Positions 25,027-46,678 of a stretch of DNA of 64,000 bases are shown here, piece by piece. The DNA lies in contig CAYZNW010000003.1 of assembly GCA_964480345.1 (NCBI GenBank), forward strand, positions 45,493 to 109,492, written 5' to 3'. Source of the DNA: an uncultured Candidatus Saccharibacteria bacterium. GTDB taxonomy: Bacteria > Patescibacteriota > Dojkabacteria > SC72. Made by a program: the position numbers and the translations under genes. Under the pieces are notes generated by a model, which saw only the letters and a list, made by a program, of their open reading frames with translations, did no database searches and was not told where the DNA came from. Position 1 is the first letter of the stretch. Every line of letters starts with the position of its first letter.

Positions 25027-25848
25027 TTAATTTTTACTTTTTAGAAAATCTTCTAGAATCATGCCACTGTTTATCATCTCTTGCGCATTAGCTTTACCGA
25101 TATACCTAAAATGCCAACTCTCATAGCTATATCCTGTCACTAACTCTGCCCCTTTTGGAAAACTAATCACGAAGCCGTATTTCCATGAGTTATCGTACAA
25201 CCACTTGCTTGCTTTAGTACCTGCAAATATCCCACCTAATCCATCTTTTATCTCAGCACTACTAAAATCAACAGCTGTACCCAATTGATGCTGACTATGC
25301 CCTGCTCTAGCAGAAATCATATCTGCATAATCAGTGCTGCCTCCATTGTATCCCACCCAGTACTGATATGTAGAGACTTGTTGCTGATATGATCGATAGC
25401 CTGAGACCATACTAAGATCTATCCCTGCTCCCATCGCATCATTAATTAAATTTTTCAAATCAGGAATTAGAATATTTCTTAACAAATACTTCTCTCCTCT
25501 GCGGATGCCACTTGTACTAGCTGAAACTAAATCAGATGGAGCGTACCCACTTGGTAATTGATACTGTTTGTTTACATAGACCAACAGATCATTTCCATCT
25601 CTTTTTGTCGGTTTGATATCTGTGGGGTATGTCCACCACGCAATTCCTAGCGTTTTTCTTGGGGTGATAGCCGGAGAAGTCTTTTTAACATACACATCTT
25701 CGATATCTGTGTTCACGGCTCGATGCAATCCTGTCTTGTAAGATTCTACCTCATCGATATGTTGTTGAGTGTAAGGAATCGTTTGTGGAGCTAAAGCAAA
25801 AGTTACTGTAAGCAAAGTCTCCACAACCCCCTTAATCCATGCAATCAT
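25027..25848 (-). CDS. D-alanyl-D-alanine carboxypeptidase, peptidase M15B (VanY-like)
   Basis: 'SGYRSYQQQ', 'HSQHQLGTAVDF', 'ESWHFRY' zinc-peptidase motifs. Confidence 0.8.
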   Translation of the reverse strand: MIAWIKGVVETLLTVTFALAPQTIPYTQQHIDEVESYKTGLHRAVNTDIEDVYVKKTSPAITPRKTLGIAWWTYPTDIKPTKRDGNDLLVYVNKQYQLPSGYAPSDLVSASTSGIRRGEKYLLRNILIPDLKNLINDAMGAGIDLSMVSGYRSYQQQVSTYQYWVGYNGGSTDYADMISARAGHSQHQLGTAVDFSSAEIKDGLGGIFAGTKASKWLYDNSWKYGFVISFPKGAELVTGYSYESWHFRYIGKANAQEMINSGMILEDFLKSKN

Positions 25849-25889
25849 GCCTTGATTCTACAATATATCTCATTTAATATACAGAAGAC

Positions 25890-26110
25890 CTATTCTCTCT
25901 TTGGGTCTGCCCTAGACCTGCCCCGTGGTAAGAACTTTTTCATCTGACCTGAAACCTTTCTCTGGTGGGTTCTTTTAGCCGCTGGTAGAAATTTAGACAG
26001 GAGGCTTGCAGACAACCTGAGCAAGAGCGTCGAACAAAGAACTGTTAGACTGGCATGAACTGAGGTTATGAATAGCTTCTGTAAGGAGGTCGGACCTAGG
26101 TCCGACCTGC
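25890..26110. ncRNA. GC-rich structured intergenic segment (candidate leader/riboswitch or sRNA; class unassigned)
   Basis: It is about 50% GC in an AT-rich genome. It carries a 20-nt perfect palindrome at 26088-26107 and a hairpin at 25903-25924. It lies between divergent genes. Confidence 0.3.
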
Positions 26111-26228
26111 AGATAACTGAAATGGAATATAGTTTCTGTTATACAAGATTGGGATATCGTTATCTAGGTGATGAAGTATATTTTGTTTCTATTAAAATGT
26201 ATGTAATAAGTTAAACGGAGGAAATGGT

Positions 26229-26456
26229 ATGACTTTATCAAAATCAGATTTATTGGTTATTTCAAGTATATTTAATGCTAATTTGGCAGTTTATGATAAG
26301 CGATTTCAGAAGATGGAGAAGATTTTAGAGAAGATCTCGCACGAGAAGCATTTTAAACAAACCAAAAATATGACATATGATGAGTTGGCGAAGAATATAA
26401 TAGAAATAACTGGAGAAGAGTTCTACACAAGAGATTTTAATATCACTAGAGTATGA
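26229..26456 (+). CDS. small hypothetical protein
   Basis: ORF with a GGAGG RBS upstream. Confidence 0.4.
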   Translation: MTLSKSDLLVISSIFNANLAVYDKRFQKMEKILEKISHEKHFKQTKNMTYDELAKNIIEITGEEFYTRDFNITRV

Positions 26457-26460
26457 GGTT

Positions 26461-29199
26461 TTAAAGTATAGCTACAGTGGAAACTTTATCTCCTTCTGCG
26501 ATATTCATGACCTTTACACCTGATGTCTGTCGACCGAGCGTTGGCATATCTTTTATCTCTGCTCTAATCACTTTAGATTTCTCTGATATAACAACGATTT
26601 CTTCATCTTCACTTGTCAAGATTCTAGCACAAGCGATATTGCCTGTTTTTTGAGTTACTCTAAATGTGAATATTCCTGTTCCTCCTCGTTTCTGTGTTCC
26701 GTACTCTTTCAAAAGAGACATCTTACCGTAACCGTTTTCAGAAAGAGTTAACAGTTTCTGATCATCACTTTTAACTATTCCCATGCCTACAACAGAATCG
26801 GTTGCTTTTTTGAATTTAATACCTGTAACTCCTCTTGTGCTTCTTCCCATAGCTCTCACATCTGTTTCTTTAAATCTAACAGATTTACCTTCTCTAGTAA
26901 TGATAATCACCTCATCTTCTCCTGTAGTTGCTTTTACCCAGGTCAATTGATCGCCCTCATCAAGTTTAATCGCAGTTAATCCATTGGATCTAATCTTAAT
27001 AAACTCTTTTAGCTCGGTCTTTTTGATAACTCCTCTCTCTGTTGCCATTAAGAAATATTTGTAACTCTTGCTATTCTCTTCTTTCTCGGCACCCTCTTTT
27101 TTCTTTTCAGATACTTTACCTTTAGAATCTCTAGTCAAAACAGATGTTACCACCTCCTCTGGATCAAGTTGAACTAGATTTACAAGAGGTAACCCCTTAG
27201 CTGTTCTACTCAAATCAGGAATCTCAAATATTCTCAAATTAAAGACTTTTCCTTTATTGGTAAATAGGAGTAATTCATCAAGTGTATTACATAGAAACGC
27301 ATGTTCTACGAAATCTCCTTCTTTAGTATCTCCTCCTGAAACGCCCTTCCCACCTCTGTTTTGTGCCTTATATGTACTTGGCGCAAGTCTTTTAATATAT
27401 CCTGACTTAGTTATTGTCACTAATGTATCTTCGGAAGAAATCATATCCTCTTCTGCTATCTCGTTTACTTTGCTTTTAACGACTTTCGTCCTTCTTTCAT
27501 CGCCAAATTTCTGTTTAATTTCTTCTAAATCAGAGTTAATAACCTCAAGTATTTTATCCTGATTCTCTAGAATCTCATTGTATTCTTTAATTTTCTGCTC
27601 TAACTCTTTGTACTCGTTTTGTAATTTTAGCCTTTCTAAAGCTGCTAATCTCCTTAACTGCATATCTAAGATTGCTTGAGCCTGTACCTCCGTAAACTCA
27701 AATTTGTCCATCAAGTTTGTTTTTGCTGTCTCTTGTGTTTTTGAACCTCGAATTGTAGCAATAACTTCATCCAGCATGTCGAGAGCTTTTAGCAATCCTT
27801 CTAATATGTGAGCTCTAAATCTAGCTTCTGCAAGATCAAATTCATATCTTCGAATAGTGACTGTTAGTCTAAATGATAGGAACAGTTCCAATATCCTTTT
27901 AATTGGTAATGTTTTTGGCTCCTGTTCTACTAATGCAATAGTATTGGCATTAAATACTTTTTGCATCTCTGTGTATTTAAAGAGTTTGTTTAAAACAGCT
28001 TTTGGTTGTGCATCTCTTTTCAATACAATTATCACTTTCATTCCTTCAATATTTGATGCATCTAAGATGTCAGCTATTCCTTTAATCTTCTTGTCTTTAA
28101 CCAAATCAGCAATCTTGGAAATCATGTGTGCTTTGTTCACCTGATAAGGTATTTCTGTCACAACGATTTGATATCTGCCCTGTTTGCCTTCTACAATAGA
28201 TGCTTTTGCTCTTTGTAAAATTCTTCCTCTTCCTGTTGCGTATACATTTAGAATCTCTTGTTGATCATATACAATGCCTCCTGTTGGGAAATCAGGTGCT
28301 GGCATAATCTCTATTAATTCTGTTGGAGTAATTTCTGATTTAAATTCAGGATAGAGAACTGTTTGCTCTTCCTCTATCTTCTGTTTTAATTCATCTATGT
28401 CTTGTTGATATTCTAACTTGCTTGTATCTACATAGTTTTCAAGATAGTCTGCAGGTTTTGAATTCAATGTTTGAGGTATTTTCTCTTTTGATTCCTTCTT
28501 TTTTCTTAATTCGTTGTATATAGCAGTACCTACCCATTTATTACCCATGGATATCATCTTTTGTAAAGCTGTTATGAGCTCAGTAAGGTTGTACGGTGGG
28601 ATTTTTGTAGCCATACCTACTGCAATACCATCTCCTCCATTTGCTAAAACATTTGGGAATAGTGCTGGAAGTACTGTTGGTTCTAATCTAGTTCCGTCAT
28701 AGTTAGGTATAAATGTAACTGTACCTTTTGCTAAATCACGAATAAGTTCTGGAGTGATTTTACCCATTCTTGCCTCTGTGTATCTCATAGCTGCAGGTGG
28801 ATCTCCGTCGATAGATCCAAAGTTACCCTGTCCATCAATTAGTGGATATCTTGTTGAGAAATCTTGTGCTAGTTTTACTAATGTAGGATATACAACTGTT
28901 TCTCCGTGAGGATGGTAGTTACCTGATGTGTCTCCTGCTATTTTTGCACATTTTCTGTAGTGTGCATTTGGAAGAAGATTAAGATCGTTCATTGCAATAA
29001 GGACTCTCCTTTGGGAAGGTTTAAGTCCATCTTTTACTTCTGGCAACGCTCTTGAAACGATTACAGACATAGAGTAATCCAAGTAGTTAGATTTCATTTC
29101 ATCTACAATAGATCTGTATGAAATCTCTCCTGGTTTAAATGTCAAATCTTTATCAAGATCATCTATATTCTCTTGTGTTGTCTTTATATCTTCATCCAT
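26461..29199 (-). CDS. gyrA: DNA gyrase subunit A
   Basis: 'SVIVSRALPEVKDGLKPSQRRVL', 'AAMRYTEARM'; C-terminal beta-pinwheel repeats. Confidence 0.95.
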   Translation of the reverse strand: MDEDIKTTQENIDDLDKDLTFKPGEISYRSIVDEMKSNYLDYSMSVIVSRALPEVKDGLKPSQRRVLIAMNDLNLLPNAHYRKCAKIAGDTSGNYHPHGETVVYPTLVKLAQDFSTRYPLIDGQGNFGSIDGDPPAAMRYTEARMGKITPELIRDLAKGTVTFIPNYDGTRLEPTVLPALFPNVLANGGDGIAVGMATKIPPYNLTELITALQKMISMGNKWVGTAIYNELRKKKESKEKIPQTLNSKPADYLENYVDTSKLEYQQDIDELKQKIEEEQTVLYPEFKSEITPTELIEIMPAPDFPTGGIVYDQQEILNVYATGRGRILQRAKASIVEGKQGRYQIVVTEIPYQVNKAHMISKIADLVKDKKIKGIADILDASNIEGMKVIIVLKRDAQPKAVLNKLFKYTEMQKVFNANTIALVEQEPKTLPIKRILELFLSFRLTVTIRRYEFDLAEARFRAHILEGLLKALDMLDEVIATIRGSKTQETAKTNLMDKFEFTEVQAQAILDMQLRRLAALERLKLQNEYKELEQKIKEYNEILENQDKILEVINSDLEEIKQKFGDERRTKVVKSKVNEIAEEDMISSEDTLVTITKSGYIKRLAPSTYKAQNRGGKGVSGGDTKEGDFVEHAFLCNTLDELLLFTNKGKVFNLRIFEIPDLSRTAKGLPLVNLVQLDPEEVVTSVLTRDSKGKVSEKKKEGAEKEENSKSYKYFLMATERGVIKKTELKEFIKIRSNGLTAIKLDEGDQLTWVKATTGEDEVIIITREGKSVRFKETDVRAMGRSTRGVTGIKFKKATDSVVGMGIVKSDDQKLLTLSENGYGKMSLLKEYGTQKRGGTGIFTFRVTQKTGNIACARILTSEDEEIVVISEKSKVIRAEIKDMPTLGRQTSGVKVMNIAEGDKVSTVAIL

Positions 29200-29208
29200 A
29201 TTTCTTTC

Positions 29209-29685
29209 TTATCTTGCAGTCTTATTTAAATTTGTTTCTTCCTCTGCTACTTGTTTCTCTATTCTTGCGCTTATCTTATCCAATTCTTGCATAGTCTCTT
29301 CTGTTACATCATCTTTTGTAACTGGAATATTAGCGACTTTATGAAATAGTTCTTTCTCTTCATCTTCCCCTGTTTTGTAAACCATAACAGAAATCTCATC
29401 ACTCTCTCTCTCTTTCGTTACAACAAATGCAGTTTGTCCTTCTCTAGAATTAGTACGTCTTTCATGGGATACAATTTGTTCTATTGATGCTTTTCCACTC
29501 TCTTCTTCTTTCTTAGAATAGGTTTCTAAATTATTTCTGTAAAAATTTCCTCCATCTTTTTTCAATATATCTACAATCTCAGGAGTGAAATGATGGTTTC
29601 TTCTTAGGAATCTCTGTACAGTTAACTTTCTAAATGCTTCTGGATTGACTGTCTCTCTACTTGGCGCACCTATTAGTTGCTCCAT
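29209..29685 (-). CDS. hypothetical protein inserted between gyrB and gyrA
   Basis: ORF only. Confidence 0.4.
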   Translation of the reverse strand: MEQLIGAPSRETVNPEAFRKLTVQRFLRRNHHFTPEIVDILKKDGGNFYRNNLETYSKKEEESGKASIEQIVSHERRTNSREGQTAFVVTKERESDEISVMVYKTGEDEEKELFHKVANIPVTKDDVTEETMQELDKISARIEKQVAEEETNLNKTAR

Positions 29686-29703
29686 AATAAAAATAATTAA
29701 AAA

Positions 29704-31614
29704 TTAAATATCTAACTTAGCTTTGTTTGCATATGTTTGAATAAACCTTCTCCTTGGAGGAACTTCATTTCCCATTAACATTTCAAATATCTTCTCTGCT
29801 TCCTCGCCATCTTCTATATGTACTTGCTTTAACACTCTTTCCTCAGGATCCATTGTTGTTTCTCGCAACTGGTCTGGATTCATCTCTCCTAGTCCTTTAA
29901 ATCTATTCTCTATGGGGGCTTTACCTTCCATTTTAGCTTTCTGTACAAACGCAATTTTCTCTTCATCGTTTAAGAAGTAATATTTCTTTTTTCCTATTTC
30001 TACTTTATGTAGAGGAGGTTGAGCAACATATACATACCCCTTCTCTATCAAAGGTCTGAAAAATCTAAAGAGAAGTGTAAGAACAAGAGTTGTAATATGC
30101 AATCCGTCTACATCAGCATCACTCATTATGATAATTTTGTGATATCGAAGTTTTGAAATATCAAGAGTATCACCGATTCCTACCCCTAATGCTGTAGTTA
30201 TATCATTGAATTCATTATTTGAAAGTACCCTATCAACTCTGTATTTATGGGTATTTAGAATCTTACCTCTAAGAGGCAAAATAGCTTGAGTATGTCTATC
30301 CCTACCCTGTTTTGCCGAACCACCTGCAGAATCTCCCTCTACAATGAAAAGTTCACTTTCTGCTGGATCTTTGCTTGTACAATCTGCTAATTTACCAGGT
30401 AAAGTTGTTGTTTCTAAAGCATTTTTTCTAATTACAGCATCTCTAGCTGCCTTTGCTGCAGCTTTAGCTTTATTTGCTAGTACTGCCTTACCTATGATGT
30501 TCTTTGCTTCTTGTGGATGCTCATCAAAATATGTAAGAAGCTCATCTCTAACTACTCTTGAAACTATACTTTTAACTTCTGGATTATTTAATTTGATCTT
30601 TGTTTGTCCTTCAAATTGTGGATCTGGTACTTTTACAGAAACAACAGCAGTCAGACCCTCACGAACATCTTCTCCACTCAATGTACCATTGAGTCCCTTT
30701 AGTAATTCAGCTTTCTGAGCATATGTGTTAATTGCACTAGTAATTGCAGTTCTGAAACCAATTAAGTGAGTACCTCCCTCTGGATTAATGATGTTATTTG
30801 TATAGCATCTAACATCTTCGTCCATTTCATCAGTATATTGTAGTGCAACTTCTACCATCACATCTCCATCCTGTTTGTTCATATAGAAAGGCTCATCCCC
30901 TATAACTTTGTTATCGATATCCAAGAATTTAACATATGATTTAATACCATCTTCAAAATACAAATCATATGTTTTACCCTCTTTTTTTGAATTATCTGTA
31001 ACTGAAATTCGCAAACCAGCAGTCAAATATGCATGTTGCCTACATCTTTTAACTATTGTGACAAAATCAAATTCTGTGGTAGAGAAGATCTCAGGGTCTG
31101 GTAGAAATGTGTGTTGCGTACCTGTTTCTTTAGAATCGCCTATCTTTTCTACTGGCTTTACTGGCACACCTCGCTCATATTTTTGTTCATATATACCACC
31201 ATCTCTAGTTACTCTAGTAATCATCCATTTTGAAAGTGCATTAGTACATTTCATACCTACACCGTGTAATCCTCCTGACACCTTGTAGGCTCCCTGATCA
31301 AACTTACCTCCTGCATGCAAATTAGTCATAACTGTTTCCAATGTTGAAACCTTTGTTTCCGAGTGGATATCTACAGGAATACCTCTACCATTATCTCTTA
31401 CAGTTAAAGAGCCATCATCATTTAAAACAACCCATATGTGCGAACAGAAGCCTGCTATTGCTTCATCTACAGAGTTATCAAGAATCTCAGTAAATATATG
31501 GTGAAGACCGTGAGTATCTGTAGAACCAATATACATAGCTGGCCTTTTTCTGACAGCTTCTAATCCTTTGAGCACTTGAATATTTGATGCACCGTAACTT
31601 GAATCTTTACTCAT
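29704..31614 (-). CDS. gyrB: DNA gyrase subunit B
   Basis: GHKL ATPase 'LHHIFTEILDNSVDEA'; Toprim 'EGDSAGGSAKQGRDR'; 'PLRGKILN'. Confidence 0.95.
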   Translation of the reverse strand: MSKDSSYGASNIQVLKGLEAVRKRPAMYIGSTDTHGLHHIFTEILDNSVDEAIAGFCSHIWVVLNDDGSLTVRDNGRGIPVDIHSETKVSTLETVMTNLHAGGKFDQGAYKVSGGLHGVGMKCTNALSKWMITRVTRDGGIYEQKYERGVPVKPVEKIGDSKETGTQHTFLPDPEIFSTTEFDFVTIVKRCRQHAYLTAGLRISVTDNSKKEGKTYDLYFEDGIKSYVKFLDIDNKVIGDEPFYMNKQDGDVMVEVALQYTDEMDEDVRCYTNNIINPEGGTHLIGFRTAITSAINTYAQKAELLKGLNGTLSGEDVREGLTAVVSVKVPDPQFEGQTKIKLNNPEVKSIVSRVVRDELLTYFDEHPQEAKNIIGKAVLANKAKAAAKAARDAVIRKNALETTTLPGKLADCTSKDPAESELFIVEGDSAGGSAKQGRDRHTQAILPLRGKILNTHKYRVDRVLSNNEFNDITTALGVGIGDTLDISKLRYHKIIIMSDADVDGLHITTLVLTLLFRFFRPLIEKGYVYVAQPPLHKVEIGKKKYYFLNDEEKIAFVQKAKMEGKAPIENRFKGLGEMNPDQLRETTMDPEERVLKQVHIEDGEEAEKIFEMLMGNEVPPRRRFIQTYANKAKLDI

Positions 31615-31697
31615 ATTTATTCCGTTATTTGTAAGTAATCTATCAGTTCTTTTTCGTGTCGTATACTCCTATATTATACCATTTATCTCATCTAAAT

Positions 31698-32381
31698 TTA
31701 AGGTAAAACTCTTAAAATCATACCTTCTAATACCAGTTTTCTATTACAATTTGCCATCACCTTTTGTCGAGTGTCATCCACTATCTTTAACGATTCTAAA
31801 ATAGACCTCGAGCTCCCTATGTTACCATTTTTTATTTCTAATTCAAGTTCATCTCTAAAATATTTATCTAGAGAATTGAGAAGCTCTAACGCTAAATCCT
31901 TACTCTCCGAATATTGTTCTACTATTTGAAATTTTTCGAAAACATTTTTATCTGTGAAATCAATCTCTAATTCTGTTGGAGAATCTAACTTACTTTGCGA
32001 ATATATTATCCTTGATCGCGAGCGAATAGTTGGAAGCAGGTTCTTCTCATTGTCGACATAAAGAATATATATCGAATATGCACTGCTCTCTTCTAACATC
32101 TTCAGAAGAGCATTTTGAGATTGTACAGTTAACTTCTCTGCATCTATGATGATGCCAACCTGTAACTCTTCTTGAAAAGGCTTGAAAAGCATCTCTTTTT
32201 GAAAATCTTTTACCTGCTCTATGCCAATACTGTTTTGTTCTACTGGATCTAAGAAATGTATGTCAGGATTTGTGTTTAAGTCATACAGAGTGATATCTCT
32301 TTTGAAAAGTTTAGAAAGCAACGAGAAAAGAGAATCGAAATCGTTTTGCCTCTTAAATTTGTCCACAAGGATGTATGTCAT
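31698..32381 (-). CDS. DNA polymerase III delta'-like clamp-loader subunit lacking a P-loop
   Basis: 'IIDAEKLTVQSQNALLKMLEE' and 'LLPTIRSRSRIIY' match HolB box VI/sensor motifs; no Walker A. Confidence 0.5.
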   Translation of the reverse strand: MTYILVDKFKRQNDFDSLFSLLSKLFKRDITLYDLNTNPDIHFLDPVEQNSIGIEQVKDFQKEMLFKPFQEELQVGIIIDAEKLTVQSQNALLKMLEESSAYSIYILYVDNEKNLLPTIRSRSRIIYSQSKLDSPTELEIDFTDKNVFEKFQIVEQYSESKDLALELLNSLDKYFRDELELEIKNGNIGSSRSILESLKIVDDTRQKVMANCNRKLVLEGMILRVLP

Positions 32382-32418
32382 GAATATCCATTATACATTA
32401 TTCGCAAGGCCTGCCCTA

Positions 32419-32438
32419 GGTCCGACCTAGGTCGGACC
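32419..32438. repeat. 20-nt GC-rich perfect palindrome GGTCCGACCTAGGTCGGACC
   Basis: It is related to GGTCGGACCTAGGTCCGACC at 26088-26107. Both are preceded by 'CTGCCCTAG'-like sequence. Confidence 0.6.
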
Positions 32439-32447
32439 CATGTATGA

Positions 32448-32480
32448 CAGAAGAGGCGTTTGTCCTCTAGTGTTTTTTCT
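32448..32480 (+). terminator. terminator-like hairpin plus U-tract in the pilB upstream region
   Basis: AGAGG-CGTTTGT-CCTCT followed by AGTGTTTTTTCTG. Confidence 0.4.
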
Positions 32481-37935: not shown

Positions 37936-38697
37936 ATGTTTGTAATATATAGTTCTATATTTTTTCTAGGTGCATCTCTTGCCAGTTTTATTAATGCTAC
38001 TCTGTATAGGATTGATAACAAGAAAGAGTTTAAGAATAATTGGAGGACAATAGCCAGAAGAAACTCTTACTGTGAGAACTGTAAAAAAGAGCTTAATTGG
38101 ATAGAGCTATTCCCTATTGTTGGTTATTTAATATATGGAGGTAAATGTTCTAAATGTAGAAAATCTATAAATATCTATTATCCAATCTCTGAGTTTATAT
38201 TGGGAGTTTCTACTCTACTCTTCTATTTAAACAGTGTTCCTTTTTATCTTTATATAATTCTGATTTTTCTGTTTATACTTTCCTACTATGATTATATATA
38301 TAAAGCGGTACCGAAGAGTTTAGTTCATGTGTTTTTAGGTATATCGATTTTGTTTTTTATTGTTTTTAATTTCAGTTTAATTACTTTGGTAATAGTTCTA
38401 TCTTTAGCTATATCTCTATTGATTCTATCTGCTTTAATGAAAAAATCTTTTGGATTAGGAGATGTTTTAATATTAATAGGGCTTGGTATTGTAATGTCTT
38501 ACAAAAGCTTTTTAGTTATGTTTTGGATTGGAATATTACTAGCCCTACTCTGTTCTATAGTTTATTCTATATTGAAAAAAAGAGATTTGAGGAAGATAAA
38601 GATTCCTATGATTCCATTTTTTACGATTTCATTTCTGATTACGTGTATATATGGGTTACATATATATGATTTACTAACTAACTGGTTATCTACTTAG
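37936..38697 (+). CDS. pilD: prepilin peptidase (A24 family, PilD)
   Basis: N-terminal Zn ribbon 'CENC...CSKC'; polytopic; 'GLGDVLILIGLG' catalytic Asp region. Confidence 0.8.
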   Translation: MFVIYSSIFFLGASLASFINATLYRIDNKKEFKNNWRTIARRNSYCENCKKELNWIELFPIVGYLIYGGKCSKCRKSINIYYPISEFILGVSTLLFYLNSVPFYLYIILIFLFILSYYDYIYKAVPKSLVHVFLGISILFFIVFNFSLITLVIVLSLAISLLILSALMKKSFGLGDVLILIGLGIVMSYKSFLVMFWIGILLALLCSIVYSILKKRDLRKIKIPMIPFFTISFLITCIYGLHIYDLLTNWLST

Positions 38698-41600
38698 CCC
38701 ACCAGAACGGTTGTTTTACTCCACTATTAAACCATTTACCGTGTCTCATAATCTGGTTCATTGTAGGTCCATCTACTGTATAGTCTAACTGTACTTGATT
38801 AATTATTGGAGATACATCTGTATCTGTGCTTGTTAATGTTGCTTTGTACTGGAAGAATCTGTAGCTACTTCCTAGAGTTATTAGTTCTGGAGATACGGTT
38901 GGTAGATACTCTTCACTTGTTATGTTATCTATCCATATATTTCTTCCTCCGTATGTATTGTCTACTCTCATTGTTAGAAGGTTGGCTCTATCTAAATGGG
39001 TGTCTAATGTTCTTCCTTTGATTGGTAAATACTCTTTCTGCCATTTAAATACATTTGCTTTGGTAGTAAAGCCACCTGTTGGGAATGTAGATATACTCTC
39101 CCAATTTCTAACTGTGATAGCTCCTGTGTCTTTGTTTACACTTGTTACTACTCCCTGTGCTATGTACTCTCCACTACTGTTTTGTTCTCTTACTATGATC
39201 TTCTCTCCTGTATATATGTTACTTCCTTTGCTCTTCATTCCTTTTACTGTTCCATCTATTGTAAAGGAGGTATCAGAGGATGATGTTATGAGGTTAGAGC
39301 TATCTAATCCTGCTCCAAACTCTATTTCAATGTTATGTGTTCTTAATCCTACTTCATATGCTTGTCTTATTTCATCTGCACTTCTTGCTATGTTGGAGAT
39401 TCTAACTTCGTCTATTTCTCCATTAAACATTTCGACATAATTAGTAAATCCAATATATGGTAAATTAGAATACCCACTCAATCTTAAATTATATGTTGTG
39501 ACAGGAGAACCGTATGCTGTTGAGTTTGATGCTTTGAGTTCACCATTTAGATATATCTTTAAACCAGAAGAGTCTCCTGTAGCTACTACATGATACCATT
39601 TGTTGAGTTCTACAAGGTTAATTGGAGTTAATAACACATTAGTTCCTCCTCTATCCAGAAATTCTAAAGCACCTGTTGTATTTAATCTGATACGGTACCC
39701 AGAGTTATCACCTTTGTTTATAAAATTAGCAACATCATTAAACTCCTTTGGTTTTATCCACGCCTCTAGGGTGATAGCAGATGGATTTAATGAGGTTGAA
39801 TCAGGTATGACAATATAATCTGAGGTACCATTGAAGTTCCTAGCTCCTCCTATTCGACCGTTATTGGTATATGTAGTTCCTATTGACATTCCGTTGTTAT
39901 TGTATCCTGAACTATCTTTGATATATGCTCCATTCCCATCTATTTCATCTAAGTGCCATAGACCTACTGTATTTGCATCTGGTTGATAGTTTGCATATGC
40001 ACTCTCTCCTACTGTTGTAGATATGTTCTCTCCTACTTTATCACTAGCTATATATACAGGGAGAGAAATTTTTGATGATAGATTCTGTGTTGGTAATAGA
40101 TAATTTGAATATATTGATTTAGGTGAAGAGTTACGATCTACACCTTGAGTGTATTCAGCTAATATTTCGGATGCTGATAAAGCTCTATTGTATATTTTAA
40201 CTTCATCTATTAATCCATTGAATCCTGCTTCTCCAGGTATTTGCTTACTAATATTTAACTCTGTATTAGTTAAATTAACAGTGACCGCATATGTACTAAC
40301 TGCACTTGTAGAGACCTGAGCTCCATTTTTGTAGCAATATATATTAGTACCATCGTAGGAAAAAGTGACATGATTCCATTGAGAAATATCAAGATAAATA
40401 AAACATTGGGCTCCATTCCATATACCCGCAGATATATTACCATCGACATTGTACACTAAATGAATATTACTTGGTTCATACCCTCCAAGGCCAAGAATCC
40501 ATTGTCTCATGGTTGGTGAAGCGTATGGCTTAAGCCATAAATCTACTGTATGTACTTTATCTCCTGTTCCTAATCCACTATTTGGAACTGTTATATAATC
40601 ATTAGTTCCATTAAAACTTCTGCTTTTTCCTACTCGCCCATCTACTATTGTTGTTCCGGTAGCAGTACCTACCCTATCTCCTACCTTATCTGCAACTGTA
40701 GTGCCTGATAGCTCATCCATATCCCAATAGGAGATTAATCCTGTATTCTTTTTTTCAAAGATTGTTTTTAGAGAAGAGTATTCTTCAAAAATCTCTTGAG
40801 TGGAAAGTGTACGATTATATATTTTTGGTTCGTCTAATTGTCCGTTGAAAAACCCCGCTGATGCTATATTTGATCCTAGATAGGTATCTTTATCAGGTCC
40901 TAATGTAAATGTAGATGCAAATTCATTTTCAAGTACACCATCTATATATAATCGAGTCTTAGTTCCATCATTTGTTCCTGTTATTAAATGCCAATTACCA
41001 TCATTTATAGAGGATTTGCTTTCATGGGTAGCTGAGTTGTTACCAGATGTGTTATCAAAATCTATTAACACTTTACCAGTTGAAGAAAATGCGTTTATAT
41101 ATAGGAATAGTCCTCTTGATTGGAATAACATTGAATTTGATGTTGTAGTAGTTTTTACCCAAATACTAGCACTCATAGAAGTGAAAGAAGAAAAATCTAT
41201 TAATGGGACTTGTACATAATCGCTAGTCCCATTGAAGCTTCTACTATTATTTGCCTTACCTTGTGCTATTGTAGTTCCTGTAGCAGTTCCGTTATATGTA
41301 CCTACACTATCTTTAACTACACTTCCACTATTCTCATCCATCTTCCAATATGATACTAATCCATCATTTACAGTAGTCCCTATTCTATTTGATTTATATG
41401 GAAGTTCTTGATTATATAACCTCTCTATTTCATCAGATGTTTTAGCTGCGTTGTATATACGTACATCATCAACAATACCATTAAAACCTTTCCACCTATT
41501 AATGATAATATCGCCACTTGCTTGTCTTATTCCCATGTTACTATATGGTATGCTACTAACTTCTTTCCCATTAACATATAATCTAATAACACTATTTGGA

Positions 41601-44600
41601 CTATCTATTACTCCTACAACATGATACCAAGAATCCTCAGCTATTATCCCCACAGGGCTATTAAGTACAGTACTAGCTACTCCTATGTTATCTACCGATG
41701 TTGATATAAAGCTAATATATTTACCAACTGTATTTATTACTAACATGTATTGTCTATCGGAGCAATTTGTCTCACTACAATCAGCTGCTCCTGTATTTTT
41801 ATTTATCAAATCCATCCAAGTACCACTAAGCGTAGAGGTTTTGAACCATGTTGCTACTGAGAGTTGACTACCACTACCATTAATATCTAAATCTGGAGTA
41901 TTTGGTAATGTTATGTAATCAGTACTTCCATTAAAACTCCTAGCTTTATCATACTTACCATCTACTATTGTTGTTCCTGTTGCACTACCATTACTACTCC
42001 CTACGCTGTCTTTTACTTCGCTACCACTTAATTCATCCATCTTCCAATGAGATACTAAACTATCATCTAATGTACTAGTATTATCTGCAGTCATATTACT
42101 ACTACTTTGTGTAAGAGTAGATCTTTTCTCTATACCTTCTAAATAGTCTGATTGAATTCTATCTGCTGCAAGAGCTTTATTGTATAATTTTACTTCGTCG
42201 ATTATACCTGACAGGGTTCCATTAGGATATGTGTTATCACCCGCTATGAACAAATCTCCACTTCCCTGCCTAATTCCACTACTGCTATATGCTGTAGAAG
42301 CCATTAGTGCTCCATTAAGATAGATACGCATATATCCGTTAGTGCTATCAATTGTACCAACAATATGATACCAAGTGTTTGGATTTATATATCCCCATCC
42401 AACATCTGTTTGTCCTACTCCTATGTTATCTACTGCCGTTGAAGAGAAAACTAAAGTACCACTCTGATTAAGAAACATAGCATATTGCCTATTCACTCCA
42501 CTGTCTGGATTTGTATCAGCCTTATAAAGTAGTGTATGCCAATTCCTTTGTGACATATCAGAAATATTCATCCAGAAACTAACAGTAATTTTACTACCAG
42601 CTCCATTAATATCTAAAGAGCTACTGTTTGGTATTCTTACAACACCAGTATTTCCATTGAAGCTTCTAGCTTTTGCATATTTTCCATCTACTATCCCTGT
42701 TCCAGTAGCTGTACCGTTATTACCTGTTCCTGATATATCACTGACAGTTGTTCCACTCTCTTCATTCATACTCCAATACCCAACTAATCCATCTTCTTTA
42801 TTATTGTATAAGCTACTATTATCAAAAGATCTTAATGTACTCTTTGCTGTATTTTCTTTCCACTCACTCCATGTACCATCATTAGGGTTGTTACTATTTC
42901 CACCTCTAATATGAAATCTAGTATTTCCCGAGTTATAGTTTGAAAGAACTTCTGAGGAAGTAAGAGATCTACTGTAGATTCGAACAGAATCCATCAATCC
43001 TTTATAGTTATTCCCTCCTGCATTTGTAAGCCTTCCCATCTCTAAATTTGTACTGTTAGAAACACTATTTATAGGTCCTGCATTTATCACATCTGCTAGT
43101 CGACCATCAAGATATAATGATAATATTGTAGAGGATTTTGTGGCTACCACATGATGCCATTGATCGTCTACAACAATAAAGTTTGAAGAGCCAATATTTT
43201 TTGTTCCTCCGCTATCGTGAACTTCAAACAATATCTTTCCTTTAGGTTCACCATTAATAGAGATAACACTTAAATTGTAACCAATTCTAGTTGGAGAAAA
43301 AACTTGTTTACTAATTAATGTCGGAAAGGATTCTGCAATAGCATAATCTGCTTTGAACCATACTTCCAAACTAAAGTCTCCTGTACTAAAATCACCTACT
43401 GTACTGTTAGATGCTGTTACATAATCATCAACTCCATCAAACATTAATCCTCCACCTCCCCATCTCCTGTTGTTGTATGTCCAACCACTACCTATAACCT
43501 TATCTTGTCCTGTCGTATCAGAAAAATTAGTTAGAGTTCCATTACAACCACTACCACAACTACCTCCACTACTTGCTACTGTTCCACTACTCTCATTGAA
43601 ATTCCACTGAGCTACTAAGCCAGTAGTGCTATACGGTACCTCCCCATCTCCTGTATTTATACCTGATACAGTAGAAGATACATTTACTTTTGATACACTT
43701 GATCCTGAATCAAATACTGTAGATTCATACTCTCCTGAATATCTCTCTTTACCATACAAATATGTCTTATATATCTCATCTGCACTTCTAGCTATATTGG
43801 ATAAACGTACCTCATCTACTAACCCATTAAAGCCTACTTCGCTCCCTGGTCCTTTACCAATATTTAACTCTGTATTAGCTAAATTGACAGGAACTCCAAC
43901 AGTAGGAGCATTACTAGATACCTGTACTCCATTCTTATAGCAATACATATTAGTTCCGTTGTAGGTGAAAGCTATATGATTCCACTGAGAAATATCAAGG
44001 CGAATAGGACATTGTGAACCACTCCATATACCAGCATAAATATTCCCATCAGTACCATATATGAGATGTATATTACCTTGGTCATATCCTCCCATCACAA
44101 GAAGCCATTGTCTTATTGTTGGTAGAGTATATGGTTTAATCCATAAATCTATTGTATGTGTCTTATCTCCTGTTCCTAATCCACTATTTGGAACTGTTAT
44201 ATAATCATTCTCTCCATCAAATTCGTATCCTTTCCCTATCTTCCCATCTACACCAATTGGTGATATATCTAACAACTTAATTGATGTGAAAAAAGTAACT
44301 TCAGCTACAATAATATTATTAGTTGTAGGAGTGAAATTAACCCAAGTAGCATTGTTATTATATTGCCAACTACTTCCACTATATTTAACAGCAACAAAAT
44401 GATTACTGTTATTTGCTTCTAATCCAGTTATACCTTGAGCTGAAAGAGATGGAGAATACATGATATATCCACTACCTGCTTCAGCATCTGTAACAGCTAT
44501 TCCAGAGTTGATAGTAGGAGTGATTATCCTAATCCCATTCCGATCTATAAAATAGCAATTAGCATCACCATATGTACACTCAATATCTATCTCTCCAGCA

Positions 44601-46678
44601 TTATCAACTCCTCCATAACGATTTAATTTAAAAGTAAGATTAGAGCTTTGTATGCCATAGCTCATACCATTTAAAGAAGTTGCAATATGGTTATTATTAG
44701 TAGAACTGTCGGCTGCTGGTGTTAATGCTGGTATTCTGTATCTAACAATAACTATTCCCGATCCACCGTTTCCGCCTGCAAGGTATGCTCCTGTAAATGA
44801 ACCCCCACCCCCTCCTCCACCTGTATTCGCTATACCATTAGTACCTGCACCATTTAGAACTCCACTTCCTCCACCTCCATTTCCACCAGTACCAACATAA
44901 GAGCCATTAACTTCTCCACCACCTCCACCTCCTGCATATACAACTGCAGTTCCTGTAATATCGCTAACTCTTCCAGCACCACCATTACCTGATCCTGAAC
45001 TGTTTCCTCCGTCTGCTCCCACACCACCTGCACCTCCACCTCCTCCATTTGTTCCTACCCATCCTGAAACTATGTATCCAGCACCTCCGTTATATCCTTG
45101 GGAACCAATTCCTCCTGTTGATAAAGGAGCGGATACAACAACAGCACCACCACCACCACTACCTCCACTTCCACCTGCAAGTTGCCCATGAGTTATTCCG
45201 GCACCCCCTCCTTCAGCAATCAGAGATGAGAAGGCCGAATCTTGTCCTTTATTACCATTATATGCACCTCCGTCTGCTCCTCCATTACCTCCATTCCCTA
45301 CAGTGACTGCAATATTCCCTTTAGATACAGTAAAAGAAGATTGCTCTACAAAACCTCCTGCTCCTCCTCCAGAACCAGTATTTGCACCACCCCCTCCTCC
45401 TCCTATAACTAACACATCCACTTTCCCATCTGTATGTGCTGTAAAAGTTCCACTAGAAGTAAAAGTATGAATCACATAATCACCAACCCTTGTTACTGTT
45501 CCACCACTTGCTGAAAAATATGGAAGATCTCCAAAACTCCAATGCCCCACAGTATTAGAATCCACAACAGGCTTCTCCACACCTAATAACTCTACCCCAC
45601 TCACACTAGATACATAATCTGAACTTATATATGTACCACTATCAAAATCTACCTTACTGTTATGAACAATACTAGGATCTATTCTAATTGGAAAAACCCT
45701 ATCATTCGAATACAACCAATCGGAATCTAAAACTAACCTTATCTCATACCTACCTCCATCAATATGACTAATATTAAACTCCACATCATACGTCTTACTA
45801 TTAACTCCATCCACTGCAAAACTAGGAAGAAAATGACTAACATAATTACCATACCTATCCTCAAAATAGTAAACCTCCCTACTACCCTCACCTACATTAA
45901 ACCAACCCTTCTTTAACATTAACCCTTCTTCAACACTCAAATCAAAAACATACTCATTAGCAGGTAGAGAACAATCCTGTACATCCTCACAATCTTTAAT
46001 ATATGAATCTAAATTACGAATAATTATCTCCTCCTTAAGACCTATTCCCTCTATGATCTGATACTCTAAATCTATACCTTTTGATATTTCCTTATTTACT
46101 ACTGTCTTCTTAGTAATACTATCTTTCTCTTCTTCTCCAAACACTCTTCCCAAATCAACTAATTCTGTATTACTCTTAATATCTCTGTTACCCATTATCT
46201 CTGATACCTCTTTCAACTTCTCTTCATCTTTATCATTTAATTTCTCTAAATCGCTAACCTTAACCCCCTTTATTGACATCTCTATACCGTAGCTTTTAAT
46301 AGGTCTGAAGAAATTCTTAACCTTATCCCAAAACCCTCTTGTATTTTCTTCAAAAGGATTCCTCTTACTAATATCTGATTCAAACCTAACCCACTGAACA
46401 TCAGGTTGATCTCTTTTACCAAAATCTACTGAAAATTTAGGATTCTTGTTCCCATAAATAGTATGACTATTTGTACTTTGCAAAAATATATCAGAGTTAG
46501 GTTTTACACTACTAATATAGTAGATGAGGAATGACAGAAGAATAGCTATTCCAATAACAATACCAAATATAAATGATTTCTTACCTTTTAAGTTCTTCCA
46601 ATTAAATCTTCTTTTACTGTTGTTGAGATGTTTTAGGACAGATTTCATCATCATAAATATTAACATAGTAGAATACAT
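38690..46678 (-). CDS. giant (2662 aa) membrane-anchored surface protein with a Gly-rich segment and at least 8 LamG/Concanavalin-A-like lectin modules
   Basis: It has an N-terminal TM helix and a ~220-aa GGxGG-rich region. Units of 'W.MDE.SG...NG.ATG......GK...SFNG..DY' ending 'DEVRIYN.ALS..EI' recur throughout. Confidence 0.8.
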   Translation of the reverse strand: MYSTMLIFMMMKSVLKHLNNSKRRFNWKNLKGKKSFIFGIVIGIAILLSFLIYYISSVKPNSDIFLQSTNSHTIYGNKNPKFSVDFGKRDQPDVQWVRFESDISKRNPFEENTRGFWDKVKNFFRPIKSYGIEMSIKGVKVSDLEKLNDKDEEKLKEVSEIMGNRDIKSNTELVDLGRVFGEEEKDSITKKTVVNKEISKGIDLEYQIIEGIGLKEEIIIRNLDSYIKDCEDVQDCSLPANEYVFDLSVEEGLMLKKGWFNVGEGSREVYYFEDRYGNYVSHFLPSFAVDGVNSKTYDVEFNISHIDGGRYEIRLVLDSDWLYSNDRVFPIRIDPSIVHNSKVDFDSGTYISSDYVSSVSGVELLGVEKPVVDSNTVGHWSFGDLPYFSASGGTVTRVGDYVIHTFTSSGTFTAHTDGKVDVLVIGGGGGGANTGSGGGAGGFVEQSSFTVSKGNIAVTVGNGGNGGADGGAYNGNKGQDSAFSSLIAEGGGAGITHGQLAGGSGGSGGGGAVVVSAPLSTGGIGSQGYNGGAGYIVSGWVGTNGGGGGAGGVGADGGNSSGSGNGGAGRVSDITGTAVVYAGGGGGGEVNGSYVGTGGNGGGGSGVLNGAGTNGIANTGGGGGGGSFTGAYLAGGNGGSGIVIVRYRIPALTPAADSSTNNNHIATSLNGMSYGIQSSNLTFKLNRYGGVDNAGEIDIECTYGDANCYFIDRNGIRIITPTINSGIAVTDAEAGSGYIMYSPSLSAQGITGLEANNSNHFVAVKYSGSSWQYNNNATWVNFTPTTNNIIVAEVTFFTSIKLLDISPIGVDGKIGKGYEFDGENDYITVPNSGLGTGDKTHTIDLWIKPYTLPTIRQWLLVMGGYDQGNIHLIYGTDGNIYAGIWSGSQCPIRLDISQWNHIAFTYNGTNMYCYKNGVQVSSNAPTVGVPVNLANTELNIGKGPGSEVGFNGLVDEVRLSNIARSADEIYKTYLYGKERYSGEYESTVFDSGSSVSKVNVSSTVSGINTGDGEVPYSTTGLVAQWNFNESSGTVASSGGSCGSGCNGTLTNFSDTTGQDKVIGSGWTYNNRRWGGGGLMFDGVDDYVTASNSTVGDFSTGDFSLEVWFKADYAIAESFPTLISKQVFSPTRIGYNLSVISINGEPKGKILFEVHDSGGTKNIGSSNFIVVDDQWHHVVATKSSTILSLYLDGRLADVINAGPINSVSNSTNLEMGRLTNAGGNNYKGLMDSVRIYSRSLTSSEVLSNYNSGNTRFHIRGGNSNNPNDGTWSEWKENTAKSTLRSFDNSSLYNNKEDGLVGYWSMNEESGTTVSDISGTGNNGTATGTGIVDGKYAKARSFNGNTGVVRIPNSSSLDINGAGSKITVSFWMNISDMSQRNWHTLLYKADTNPDSGVNRQYAMFLNQSGTLVFSSTAVDNIGVGQTDVGWGYINPNTWYHIVGTIDSTNGYMRIYLNGALMASTAYSSSGIRQGSGDLFIAGDNTYPNGTLSGIIDEVKLYNKALAADRIQSDYLEGIEKRSTLTQSSSNMTADNTSTLDDSLVSHWKMDELSGSEVKDSVGSSNGSATGTTIVDGKYDKARSFNGSTDYITLPNTPDLDINGSGSQLSVATWFKTSTLSGTWMDLINKNTGAADCSETNCSDRQYMLVINTVGKYISFISTSVDNIGVASTVLNSPVGIIAEDSWYHVVGVIDSPNSVIRLYVNGKEVSSIPYSNMGIRQASGDIIINRWKGFNGIVDDVRIYNAAKTSDEIERLYNQELPYKSNRIGTTVNDGLVSYWKMDENSGSVVKDSVGTYNGTATGTTIAQGKANNSRSFNGTSDYVQVPLIDFSSFTSMSASIWVKTTTTSNSMLFQSRGLFLYINAFSSTGKVLIDFDNTSGNNSATHESKSSINDGNWHLITGTNDGTKTRLYIDGVLENEFASTFTLGPDKDTYLGSNIASAGFFNGQLDEPKIYNRTLSTQEIFEEYSSLKTIFEKKNTGLISYWDMDELSGTTVADKVGDRVGTATGTTIVDGRVGKSRSFNGTNDYITVPNSGLGTGDKVHTVDLWLKPYASPTMRQWILGLGGYEPSNIHLVYNVDGNISAGIWNGAQCFIYLDISQWNHVTFSYDGTNIYCYKNGAQVSTSAVSTYAVTVNLTNTELNISKQIPGEAGFNGLIDEVKIYNRALSASEILAEYTQGVDRNSSPKSIYSNYLLPTQNLSSKISLPVYIASDKVGENISTTVGESAYANYQPDANTVGLWHLDEIDGNGAYIKDSSGYNNNGMSIGTTYTNNGRIGGARNFNGTSDYIVIPDSTSLNPSAITLEAWIKPKEFNDVANFINKGDNSGYRIRLNTTGALEFLDRGGTNVLLTPINLVELNKWYHVVATGDSSGLKIYLNGELKASNSTAYGSPVTTYNLRLSGYSNLPYIGFTNYVEMFNGEIDEVRISNIARSADEIRQAYEVGLRTHNIEIEFGAGLDSSNLITSSSDTSFTIDGTVKGMKSKGSNIYTGEKIIVREQNSSGEYIAQGVVTSVNKDTGAITVRNWESISTFPTGGFTTKANVFKWQKEYLPIKGRTLDTHLDRANLLTMRVDNTYGGRNIWIDNITSEEYLPTVSPELITLGSSYRFFQYKATLTSTDTDVSPIINQVQLDYTVDGPTMNQIMRHGKWFNSGVKQPFWWAK
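40250..40630. repeat. intragenic DNA repeat, copy 2 (paralogous to 43850-44230)
   Basis: About 70 nt is near-identical (40551-40618 vs 44151-44215) within ~380 nt of 75-95% similarity. It encodes duplicated LamG modules. Confidence 0.6.
43850..44230. repeat. intragenic DNA repeat, copy 1
   Basis: See copy 2. Confidence 0.6.

Follow-up and report, generated by a model that had tools for sequence, protein, structure and literature searches.

A 64,000-nt stretch of DNA from an uncultured Candidatus Saccharibacteria bacterium (GTDB lineage Dojkabacteria; GenBank assembly GCA_964480345.1, contig CAYZNW010000003.1, positions 45,493 to 109,492; hereafter the window) carries short GC-rich palindromes in two divergent intergenic regions. 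These are very probably repetitive extragenic palindromes (REPs) of a family that is tied to a Y1 HUH enzyme resembling RAYTs (tyrosine transposases associated with REPs), in Dojkabacteria as well as other bacteria of the candidate phyla radiation (CPR). The repeat family is multi-copy and mostly extragenic, and in relatives of the window the repeat unit brackets a single transposase gene with its arms pointing inward, a layout known as a 'REPtron'. The most satisfactory explanation is a REP/RAYT repeat family of atypical form hosted by a CPR bacterium, i.e. a known kind of system in a new host group and with an unusual repeat.

Repeat units in the window

The window, with an average GC content of ~34%, contains two perfect 20-nt palindromes, GGTCGGACCTAGGTCCGACC at 26088-26107 and GGTCCGACCTAGGTCGGACC at 32419-32438. 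An earlier note, made from the sequence alone, had reported both, and they were confirmed exactly. The basic unit is an 11-nt box, GGTCNGACCTA, each copy of which is itself palindromic about its central base, with two tandem boxes making up each 20-mer. The base preceding the 20-mer is a purine in all copies examined, which extends the palindrome to a 22-mer in its full form. At the second site, the perfect 20-mer (from 32419) is preceded by one more unit, degenerate in sequence (GGCCTGCCCTA, 32408-32418). The repeat features of the window are as follows (no strand is given for the palindromic features):

25904-26108: inverted REP doublet of ~205 nt, resembling a bacterial interspersed mosaic element (BIME) or a REPIN (REP doublet forming hairpins), with a palindrome at both tips and arms inward
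25904-25924: degenerate REP of two tandem units, GGTCTGCCC-TA-GACCTGCCC(C); VanY-proximal end of the doublet
25925-25943, + strand: inner arm beside the left REP, GTGGTAAGAACTTTTTCAT; orients the REP and is part of the repeated unit
26068-26087, + strand: inner arm beside the right REP, ATGAATAGCTTCTGTAAGGA; homologous to ATGAAAATTTTCTTGTGGGA in L015, L035 and L057
26087-26108: perfect REP palindrome A-GGTCGGACCTAGGTCCGACC-T of two 11-nt units; orthologous copy kept in L015
32408-32438: solo cluster with three 11-nt REP units in tandem, GGCCTGCCCTA-GGTCCGACCTA-GGTCGGACC; the perfect 20-mer is formed by units two and three

Here and below, L numbers denote stretches of other genomes. With up to three mismatches allowed, the 20-mer pattern has 3 matches in the window compared to 0.00 expected from 100 shuffles. 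A search with the relaxed unit GGYCNGVCC returns 10 strand-matches (six positions), all of them inside the three clusters, compared to 1.1 expected. GGTCTGCCCTAGACC is located at 25904-25918, within the degenerate two-unit copy, and the sequence said to be shared between the sites, CTGCCCTAG, does indeed occur exactly twice in the window, at 25907 and 32411.

As single-stranded DNA (ssDNA), the perfect copies form a stable computed hairpin (-10.8 kcal/mol, z -5.8), compared to a weak one (-3.7 kcal/mol, z -1.3) for the degenerate copy at 25904-25924. The 'related hairpin' previously placed at 25903-25924 is thus a true, degenerate relative of the palindromes, starting at 25904, but only a weak hairpin. 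In 20 of 29 CPR copies the central bases complement each other, compared to a chance expectation of 25%, and this fits selection for, or descent of, hairpin-competent copies. Degenerate copies carry the same substitution in both units and in direct orientation, as seen in the window (25904-25924 and 32408-32416), at L065 4909 and at L009 7031. An identical change in both units, again in direct orientation, is also present in all L186 copies, among them the variants at 9915, 17885 and 17920. The doubled substitutions comprise CTGCCC twice, CAGGCC twice and CTGTCC twice, and may come from slippage or conversion between the 11-nt units, or from functional asymmetry. A bulge allows E. coli TnpA-REP to discriminate REP from its inverted counterpart, iREP (PMC8266576); by analogy, the mismatched and oriented hairpins may parallel this bulge.

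Orientation of the unit is given by the asymmetric inner arm of ~20-25 nt, with the pattern ...AAGAA-N4-TTCAT. The same arm as at 25925-25943, in the form TATGTTAAGAAGTTTTTCAT, follows the palindrome in L015, L035, L057 and L085, and also lies directly upstream of the RAYT gene described below, while the right inner arm of the window (26068-26087) is also homologous to the 3' end of that gene (ATTAAAAATTTCTTAAAGGA followed by GGTC). Mini-ORFs (open reading frames; ATGAA...TTCT) that run through the palindrome were also considered; their stop positions vary between copies, hence the arm is a DNA-level feature and does not encode a peptide.

Pairs of palindromes spaced by 160-186 nt are also present in L015, L035, L057, L022, L050, L062, L099 and L186, with the inverted orientation of the doublets shown by the inner arms and the asymmetric L186 variants. 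Doublet spacers are ~125-165 nt, and thus reach or exceed the 130-nt limit used for REPINs. The VanY/orf75 doublet has an orthologous counterpart in the metagenome-assembled genome (MAG) JBMNPD01 (L015), which is syntenic with the window at 80-95% protein identity. There, the window copy at 25904-25924 aligns with the near-perfect GGTCTGACCTAGGTGCGACC, and the doublet interior is ~50% identical compared to ~90% for the flanks. Taken whole, the ~205-nt element has no folding advantage over shuffled sequence (z -1.3, both strands). Inspection of the ten doublets revealed no flanking direct duplication, and their ends are inverted over ~45 nt. We rejected a classical miniature inverted-repeat transposable element (MITE) of the kind with a DDE transposase, terminal inverted repeats and target site duplications, as there is no flanking duplication, no long hairpin and no associated DDE gene. 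We likewise rejected the idea that the doublets arose from the gene-bearing unit as full deletion derivatives, since only the terminal ~45 nt are common to both.

A Y1 transposase gene bracketed by the repeats

In the closest relative, JBMNPD01, a 152-aa ORF encodes an IS200-like Y1 transposase with a match to PF01797 (L085). A 20-mer is located 44 nt upstream of this gene, and a single AGGTCCGACCT unit directly follows its stop codon. A 39%-identical homologue in a Saccharibacteria-labelled MAG (L028) has a perfect 20-mer upstream and a 2-mismatch copy downstream, and a 60%-identical homologue on a 671-kb CPR contig (L186) lies between the inverted variants GGTCTGGCCTAGGTCTGCCC and GGGCAGACCTAGGCCAGGCC, with another doublet 7.5 kb from the gene. 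In Massilia (L087), 16 nt separate the end of a RAYT-like ORF (...YIELNPVRA...; profile E 5e-19) from the palindrome that follows. A Y1 gene bracketed by the repeats was thus seen in the relatives L085/L181-L185, L028, L186, L101, L103 and L087. Where contexts were read, the gene was seen at one locus per genome, and it adjoins pepF, at the same locus, in 6 of 6 contigs read (several sequencing runs). Named homologues are labelled 'transposase' from Patescibacteria, Saccharibacteria or Lloydbacteria by their sources.

A metagenome scan yielded 567 relatives of the Y1 protein, the best 80 of which were examined. The closest of these (L101 and L103) have 20-mer-like copies on both sides of the gene. 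At L104-L119 the gene is bracketed by hairpins with copy-specific outer stems and a central AGGTYNRACCT core. Across the 80 loci, GGTCNGACC (<=1 mismatch) is found at 1.31/kb at the gene ends compared to 0.31/kb elsewhere, a 4.3-fold enrichment (Fisher p 3e-12). Of the 80 homologue loci, 31 have the motif, a fraction that drops with falling protein identity.

All Logan contigs bearing the JBMNPD01-type RAYT (L181-L185) end ~40 nt past the gene, a short way beyond its downstream repeat. Short-read assembly of CPR genomes thus appears to be interrupted by the repeats. Two further assemblies (L192/L193 4001-4345; GCA_041776685.1 and GCA_041829885.1) hold a 69%-identical RAYT homologue that is frameshifted. 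The REP beside this gene is decayed (GGCCTTGCCTAGGCCTAGCC), with no intact unit in 5.4 kb, which would provide anecdotal support for repeat decay following enzyme loss.

Relationship of the protein to TnpA-REP

The bracketed Y1 HUH proteins of the relatives are 147-152 aa long. Their only NCBIfam match is to NF047646 REP_Tyr_transpos (REP-associated tyrosine transposase), with scores of 48.6 and 74.3 bits that fall below the 80-bit cutoff. Both H57-x-H59 and Y118...N122-P123 are invariant among 34 homologues. A single-protein phmmer search of the PDB gave no match, and an alignment profile was needed to reach E. coli TnpA-REP: the profile of the 34 homologues has 4ER8 (E. coli TnpA-REP) as its best PDB match (E 6e-7), with ISDra2 TnpA at 4e-3. 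The AF2 model (pLDDT 92.7) also fits 4ER8 best (TM 0.71, rmsd 2.9 Å), compared to TM <=0.59 for IS200/IS605 TnpA structures. Most aligned homologues have a Phe in place of the conserved Trp in the W-Q/E motif (consensus LFQGRF); the WQ/WE motif lies in a region tied to GTAG recognition (PMC6006769). Proteins are ~28-39% identical across phyla despite the common repeat core.

Distribution of the repeat across genomes

We scanned one genome per species for exact GGTCNGACCTAGGTCNGACC, taking 8-kb stretches as loci. It was found in 99 stretches, compared to a chance estimate from base composition of ~10-20, nearly all of which would be in high-GC genomes. By our own count from the contig list, 31 of the 99 loci belong to 10 CPR MAGs (labelled Ca. 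Dojkabacteria or Ca. Saccharibacteria) and another 31 to Massilia sp. TWR1-2-2. The remaining loci are from several Acidobacteriota, Vicinamibacterales, Burkholderiales, other Pseudomonadota and Planctomycetaceae MAGs. The closest relative has exact copies at 7 loci. Hence the palindromes are not the sole, unconserved copies that the earlier note had named as its refuting outcome, given their presence in 10 CPR MAGs and the conservation of the doublet in JBMNPD01.

The majority of CPR copies (25 of 29) fall outside long ORFs, and one doublet lies between convergent genes. The remaining 4 are in frame within uvrA, dnaG, mfd and a miaB-miaA fusion. An intergenic-only distribution therefore holds for all window copies, but not for the 4 of 29 CPR copies inside long ORFs. 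These in-frame copies (L007 5729-5748, L053 5365-5384, L082 1704-1723 and L096 5732-5751) are from other CPR MAGs. The uvrA copy falls at ~aa 465, in the stretch that separates the DNA-binding domain from the second ABC domain, and the dnaG copy is at ~aa 420, past Toprim; another is located within mfd and a further one at the junction of the miaB-miaA fusion ORF.

The Massilia loci are distributed within L002-L097 (NZ_JAFCWM01 contigs, e.g. L041 5545 and L087 660). Each Massilia 20-mer centres a longer copy-specific palindrome (e.g. aaaacgg...ccgtttt), with T-runs after some. A GGTCTGACCTAGGTCAGACC variant is common to betaproteobacterial genomes and MAGs (L003, L008, L011, L073 and L093; L016, L030, L032 and L049), at apparently orthologous positions directly after stop codons; this pattern would mean long persistence at fixed sites beyond CPR too. 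One copy was found on an Actinomyces MAG contig (L066 4315-4334), although a single high-GC match could be due to chance. Actinomyces is a genus hosting Saccharibacteria epibionts.

A putatively mobile repeat at an orthologous spacer

All window copies are located in divergent intergenic regions, VanY(-)/orf75(+) and holB(-)/pilB(+), in agreement with the setting described previously. The first spacer separates a VanY-type peptidase (-) from a conserved 75-aa ORF (+), the second a holB-gyrB-orf158-gyrA cluster (-) from a type IV pilus operon led by a pilB-like ATPase (+). The latter spacer is 172 nt long in the window and holds 1 cluster. Orthologous pilB-holB spacers lack boxes in L191 (92 nt) and L188 (139 nt), and contain 3 clusters each in L190 (366 nt) and L187 (589 nt). 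Promoter and leader blocks around the spacer are kept in all relatives compared. Because the pilB-holB spacer thus holds 0, 1 or 3 clusters, the repeat behaves as a mobile element and not as a fixed operator. Taken together, the multi-copy and mostly extragenic distribution, the number polymorphism at an orthologous spacer and the bracketing of a RAYT-like Y1 gene support the suggestion of REP/MITE-like repeats made earlier.

The repeat unit consists of a 22-nt palindrome (two, sometimes three, tandem GGTCNGACCTA boxes) and a ~24-nt asymmetric inner arm. Units occur singly, in tandem or as ~205-nt inverted doublets, with one doublet and one solo triple-box cluster in the window. By analogy to TnpA-REP and IS200/IS605 (PMC8266576), the transposase would bind the repeat as an ssDNA hairpin, which would presumably be cut and rejoined via a 5'-phosphotyrosine intermediate, with copies thereby duplicated or deleted in trans. 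In this reading, with putative mobilisation by the RAYT-like enzyme, the window copies are passengers in promoter-rich spacers. An effect of these copies on holB, VanY and orf75 expression is possible, as is host co-option of individual copies.

Several observations weigh against assignment to a REP/RAYT system. REPs are marked by a conserved tetranucleotide, GTAG or GTGG, within 0-2 nt on the 5' side of the foot of the hairpin (PMC8266576, PMC6006769), and this canonical 5' guide is absent here, with matches in 2 of 58 flanks of CPR copies and in 6 of 148 of the high-GC ones. Flank constraint is limited to the purine at position -1, with an internal CTAG/TAGG at the palindrome centre. In addition, the ~163-nt doublet spacer exceeds that of typical REPINs and BIMEs, the doubled substitutions of degenerate copies break the hairpin symmetry, and the NF047646 scores are below cutoff. 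Copies upstream of pilB and tRNA-Leu/Val are kept across deep Dojkabacteria splits, and persistence at orthologous sites could also reflect selection for a host function. No Y1 transposase gene was found within the 64-kb window, and the protein search returned no RAYT homologue with the ~80% identity expected for one from the window's own genome; this genome may thus be without an intact enzyme. The 69%-identical protein P0008 lies in assemblies that have no established tie to the window, and an exact match to the window holB was found on a Logan contig only.

Alternative explanations

The closest competing explanation, which we consider improbable, is that the repeats are the ends and miniatures (MITE-like, or palindrome-associated transposable elements, PATEs) of an autonomously mobile insertion sequence (IS) of the IS200/IS605 type, and that the enzyme is not a domesticated RAYT. 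Doublets and gene-bracketing sequences do share the same terminal ~45 nt (palindrome and arm) in the same inverted layout, as would be seen in a deletion derivative, the IS200/IS605 TnpA structures are significant fold matches too, and the REP-typical GTAG guide is missing. However, the doublet and the gene-bearing unit cease to resemble each other ~25 nt inward of the palindrome, and the gene was seen at one locus per genome, beside housekeeping genes, with no tnpB called adjacent at loci with gene calls. Furthermore, both profile and fold are nearer to TnpA-REP than to IS200/IS605 TnpA, and NCBIfam matches the RAYT model only.

Alternatively, the boxes could be operators of a dimeric or tetrameric transcription factor at the holB-gyrBA, VanY, pilB and tRNA promoters, with a GntR/FadR-type protein binding GGT-N3-ACC or a ribbon-helix-helix protein binding the tandem boxes in a MetJ-like manner. 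A GntR/FadR or MetJ-like operator was initially favoured, since GGTCNGACC fits the GGT-N3-ACC core of LldR/PdhR/FadR operators and the boxes are phased by 11 bp, i.e. one helical turn. The palindromes are also conserved whereas the doublet interior diverges, many copies are located 8-43 nt from -10-like boxes, and those upstream of pilB and tRNA-Leu/Val persist across a deep Dojkabacteria split. It was dropped on the basis of the transposase link and the presence/absence polymorphism, and is now regarded as very unlikely. The distance to the -10 boxes varies over the same 8-43 nt, without a fixed geometry, and L188 and L191 keep both the holB and pilB promoter blocks yet have no boxes. Neither the convergent-gene doublet nor the four copies inside uvrA, dnaG, mfd and the miaB-miaA fusion suits an operator. 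Genes neighbouring the copies have no common theme, their consistent partner being the transposase gene. Neither the annotated parts of the window nor the surroundings of the copies yielded a regulator gene, with the exception of one CsoR-like gene in L065, and the same search revealed no GntR gene. The dimeric-regulator operator that the earlier note had offered thus fails as the primary explanation, and no co-varying helix-turn-helix (HTH) regulator was found with the copies. The 75-aa ORF (26229-26456) was considered for this role and set aside, as it has no Pfam match and no obvious HTH. A further suggestion, that the palindromes are restriction or anti-restriction targets, found no evidence in its favour.

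Least probable of all is that the ~205-nt element or the palindrome corresponds to a structured non-coding RNA or a transcription terminator. The palindrome would give a GC-rich 8-9-bp RNA hairpin, and T-runs follow some of the Massilia copies, but none follows the window copies. Degenerate copies co-vary in direct orientation and not as pairing partners. Rfam gave no window match above gathering score (a permissive scan of 25800-26300 produced one sub-threshold match), and this, with the non-significant fold of the whole element (z -1.3 on both strands), speaks against a structured RNA. Likenesses to LexA/Cheo-box sites, Tn3 inverted repeats and dif/Xer sites were assessed by eye and rejected, spacing or copy number being unfit.

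Comparison with known systems

The nearest known systems are the REP/BIME and TnpA-REP REPtrons of E. coli, Stenotrophomonas maltophilia and Marinomonas (PMC8266576). As in these, the repeats described here are multi-copy extragenic palindromes, often in inverted pairs, and a Y1 HUH gene is bracketed by the same palindromes, here at one locus where contexts were read. The catalytic HUH and Tyr motifs are present here too, and 4ER8 is the best match by both sequence and fold. In contrast to REPtrons, there is no GTAG/GTGG guide, and the palindrome is composed of tandem 11-nt self-palindromic boxes centred on CTAG. Hosts are CPR bacteria, Phe replaces Trp in the W-Q/E motif, the doublet linker is ~163 nt and the NCBIfam score is sub-cutoff.

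An inverted REP doublet is also the unit of the REPIN-RAYT systems of Pseudomonas and Enterobacteria (Groups 2 and 3 of Bertels & Rainey; PMC3116915; bioRxiv 10.1101/2021.07.10.451892). Both would depend on a single-copy RAYT, and both persist at orthologous sites over long divergence, and the REPIN-RAYT model is also fitted, anecdotally, by the frameshifted RAYT with its decayed REP. REPINs are ~100 nt with REPs <130 nt apart, and their sequences are lineage-specific (10.1101/2021.07.10.451892), whereas the core described here is common to CPR, Betaproteobacteria, Acidobacteriota and Planctomycetes. REPs more generally have been described as species-specific (PMC6006769). A search of the accessible library found no report of REP/RAYT systems in CPR bacteria: RAYT and a CPR term coincide in just two versions of one unrelated paper on primer coverage, once in passing in each, and the REPIN/RAYT papers make no mention of CPR.

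IS200/IS605 elements and their PATE miniatures (IS608, ISDra2) share a Y1 HUH transposase and subterminal ssDNA hairpins at both ends, and their gene-less miniatures likewise retain the ends. They differ from the present case in that here the gene was seen at one locus, with no tnpB called beside it, and perfect palindromes identical at both ends. Rickettsia palindromic elements (RPEs) are also short palindromic repeats of a reduced genome that can sit in frame in genes. They are 100-150 nt long, and no transposase is known for them. The in-frame uvrA, dnaG and mfd copies of other CPR MAGs resemble RPEs, whereas the window copies are all extragenic. Finally, operators of the GntR/FadR subfamily (LldR TGGTCTGACCA, PdhR, FadR) have the 9-nt core GGT-N3-ACC in common with the repeat, but here the sequence is multi-copy, transposase-associated and polymorphic at orthologous promoters, with no cognate regulator found.

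Genomic surroundings of the repeats

The window HolB has a 78%-identical homologue labelled Ca. Dojkabacteria by its source. The solo cluster at 32408-32438 ends 12 nt from a TATAAT box, which itself lies 8 nt ahead of the holB start codon. Both holB and VanY look leaderless, with TATAAT 8 nt and TAGAAT 6 nt before the ATG (32382-32407 and 25849-25860, respectively), a pattern repeated in several relatives. Neither site yielded a complete promoter in a strict sigma-70 scan, and the -10 assignments were made by eye. On the other side of the cluster, 14 nt past it and between holB and pilB, is a terminator-like hairpin (AGAGGCGTTTGTCCTCT) with a T-run (32452-32478, +). This has no + strand gene upstream, and only its right arm is kept in relatives.

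At the first site, the 75-aa ORF is 80% identical in L015 and has no family match. The 120 nt between the right REP and this ORF (26108-26228) are ~90% identical to L015, and could, judging from this conservation, be a leader, a promoter or a small RNA. Further downstream, a 2662-aa ORF (38690-46678, -) is flanked by the type IV pilus operon and by ORFs with pilin-like N-termini. By eye, it contains long Gly-rich stretches and repeated segments.

Implications

Work on REP/RAYT systems has dealt almost solely with Proteobacteria, and the systems have been presented as lineage-specific, with vertical inheritance. Dojkabacteria and Saccharibacteria genomes are smaller than ~1 Mb with scant intergenic DNA, hence selfish or domesticated repeats evidently survive even where genomes are streamlined to the extreme. 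A REP type that lacks the GTAG guide is useful for understanding how Y1 enzymes select their substrate and cleavage site. That contigs end at the repeats, and that copies are found near core promoters (holB-gyrBA, pilB, tRNAs), bears on MAG quality and on studies of CPR regulation.

The most intriguing leads are the conservation of the core across phyla and the in-frame copies in DNA-repair and replication genes. We tentatively suggest, as a possibility that is rather less probable than its negation, that the system represents a distinct and ancient RAYT clade, with an ~11-nt core, AGGTCNGACCT, near-unchanged across CPR, Betaproteobacteria, Acidobacteriota and Planctomycetes while the proteins are ~30% identical. 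In the ultra-small CPR genomes, the repeats would in addition have been recruited to serve as promoter-proximal modules, and as linkers kept in frame within uvrA, dnaG and mfd. If true, this would contradict the species-specificity of REPs, implying either a frozen DNA specificity or inter-phylum REP/RAYT transfer. The phylum-crossing repeat core either stands as a counter-example to the species-specificity of REPs or records transfer between phyla.

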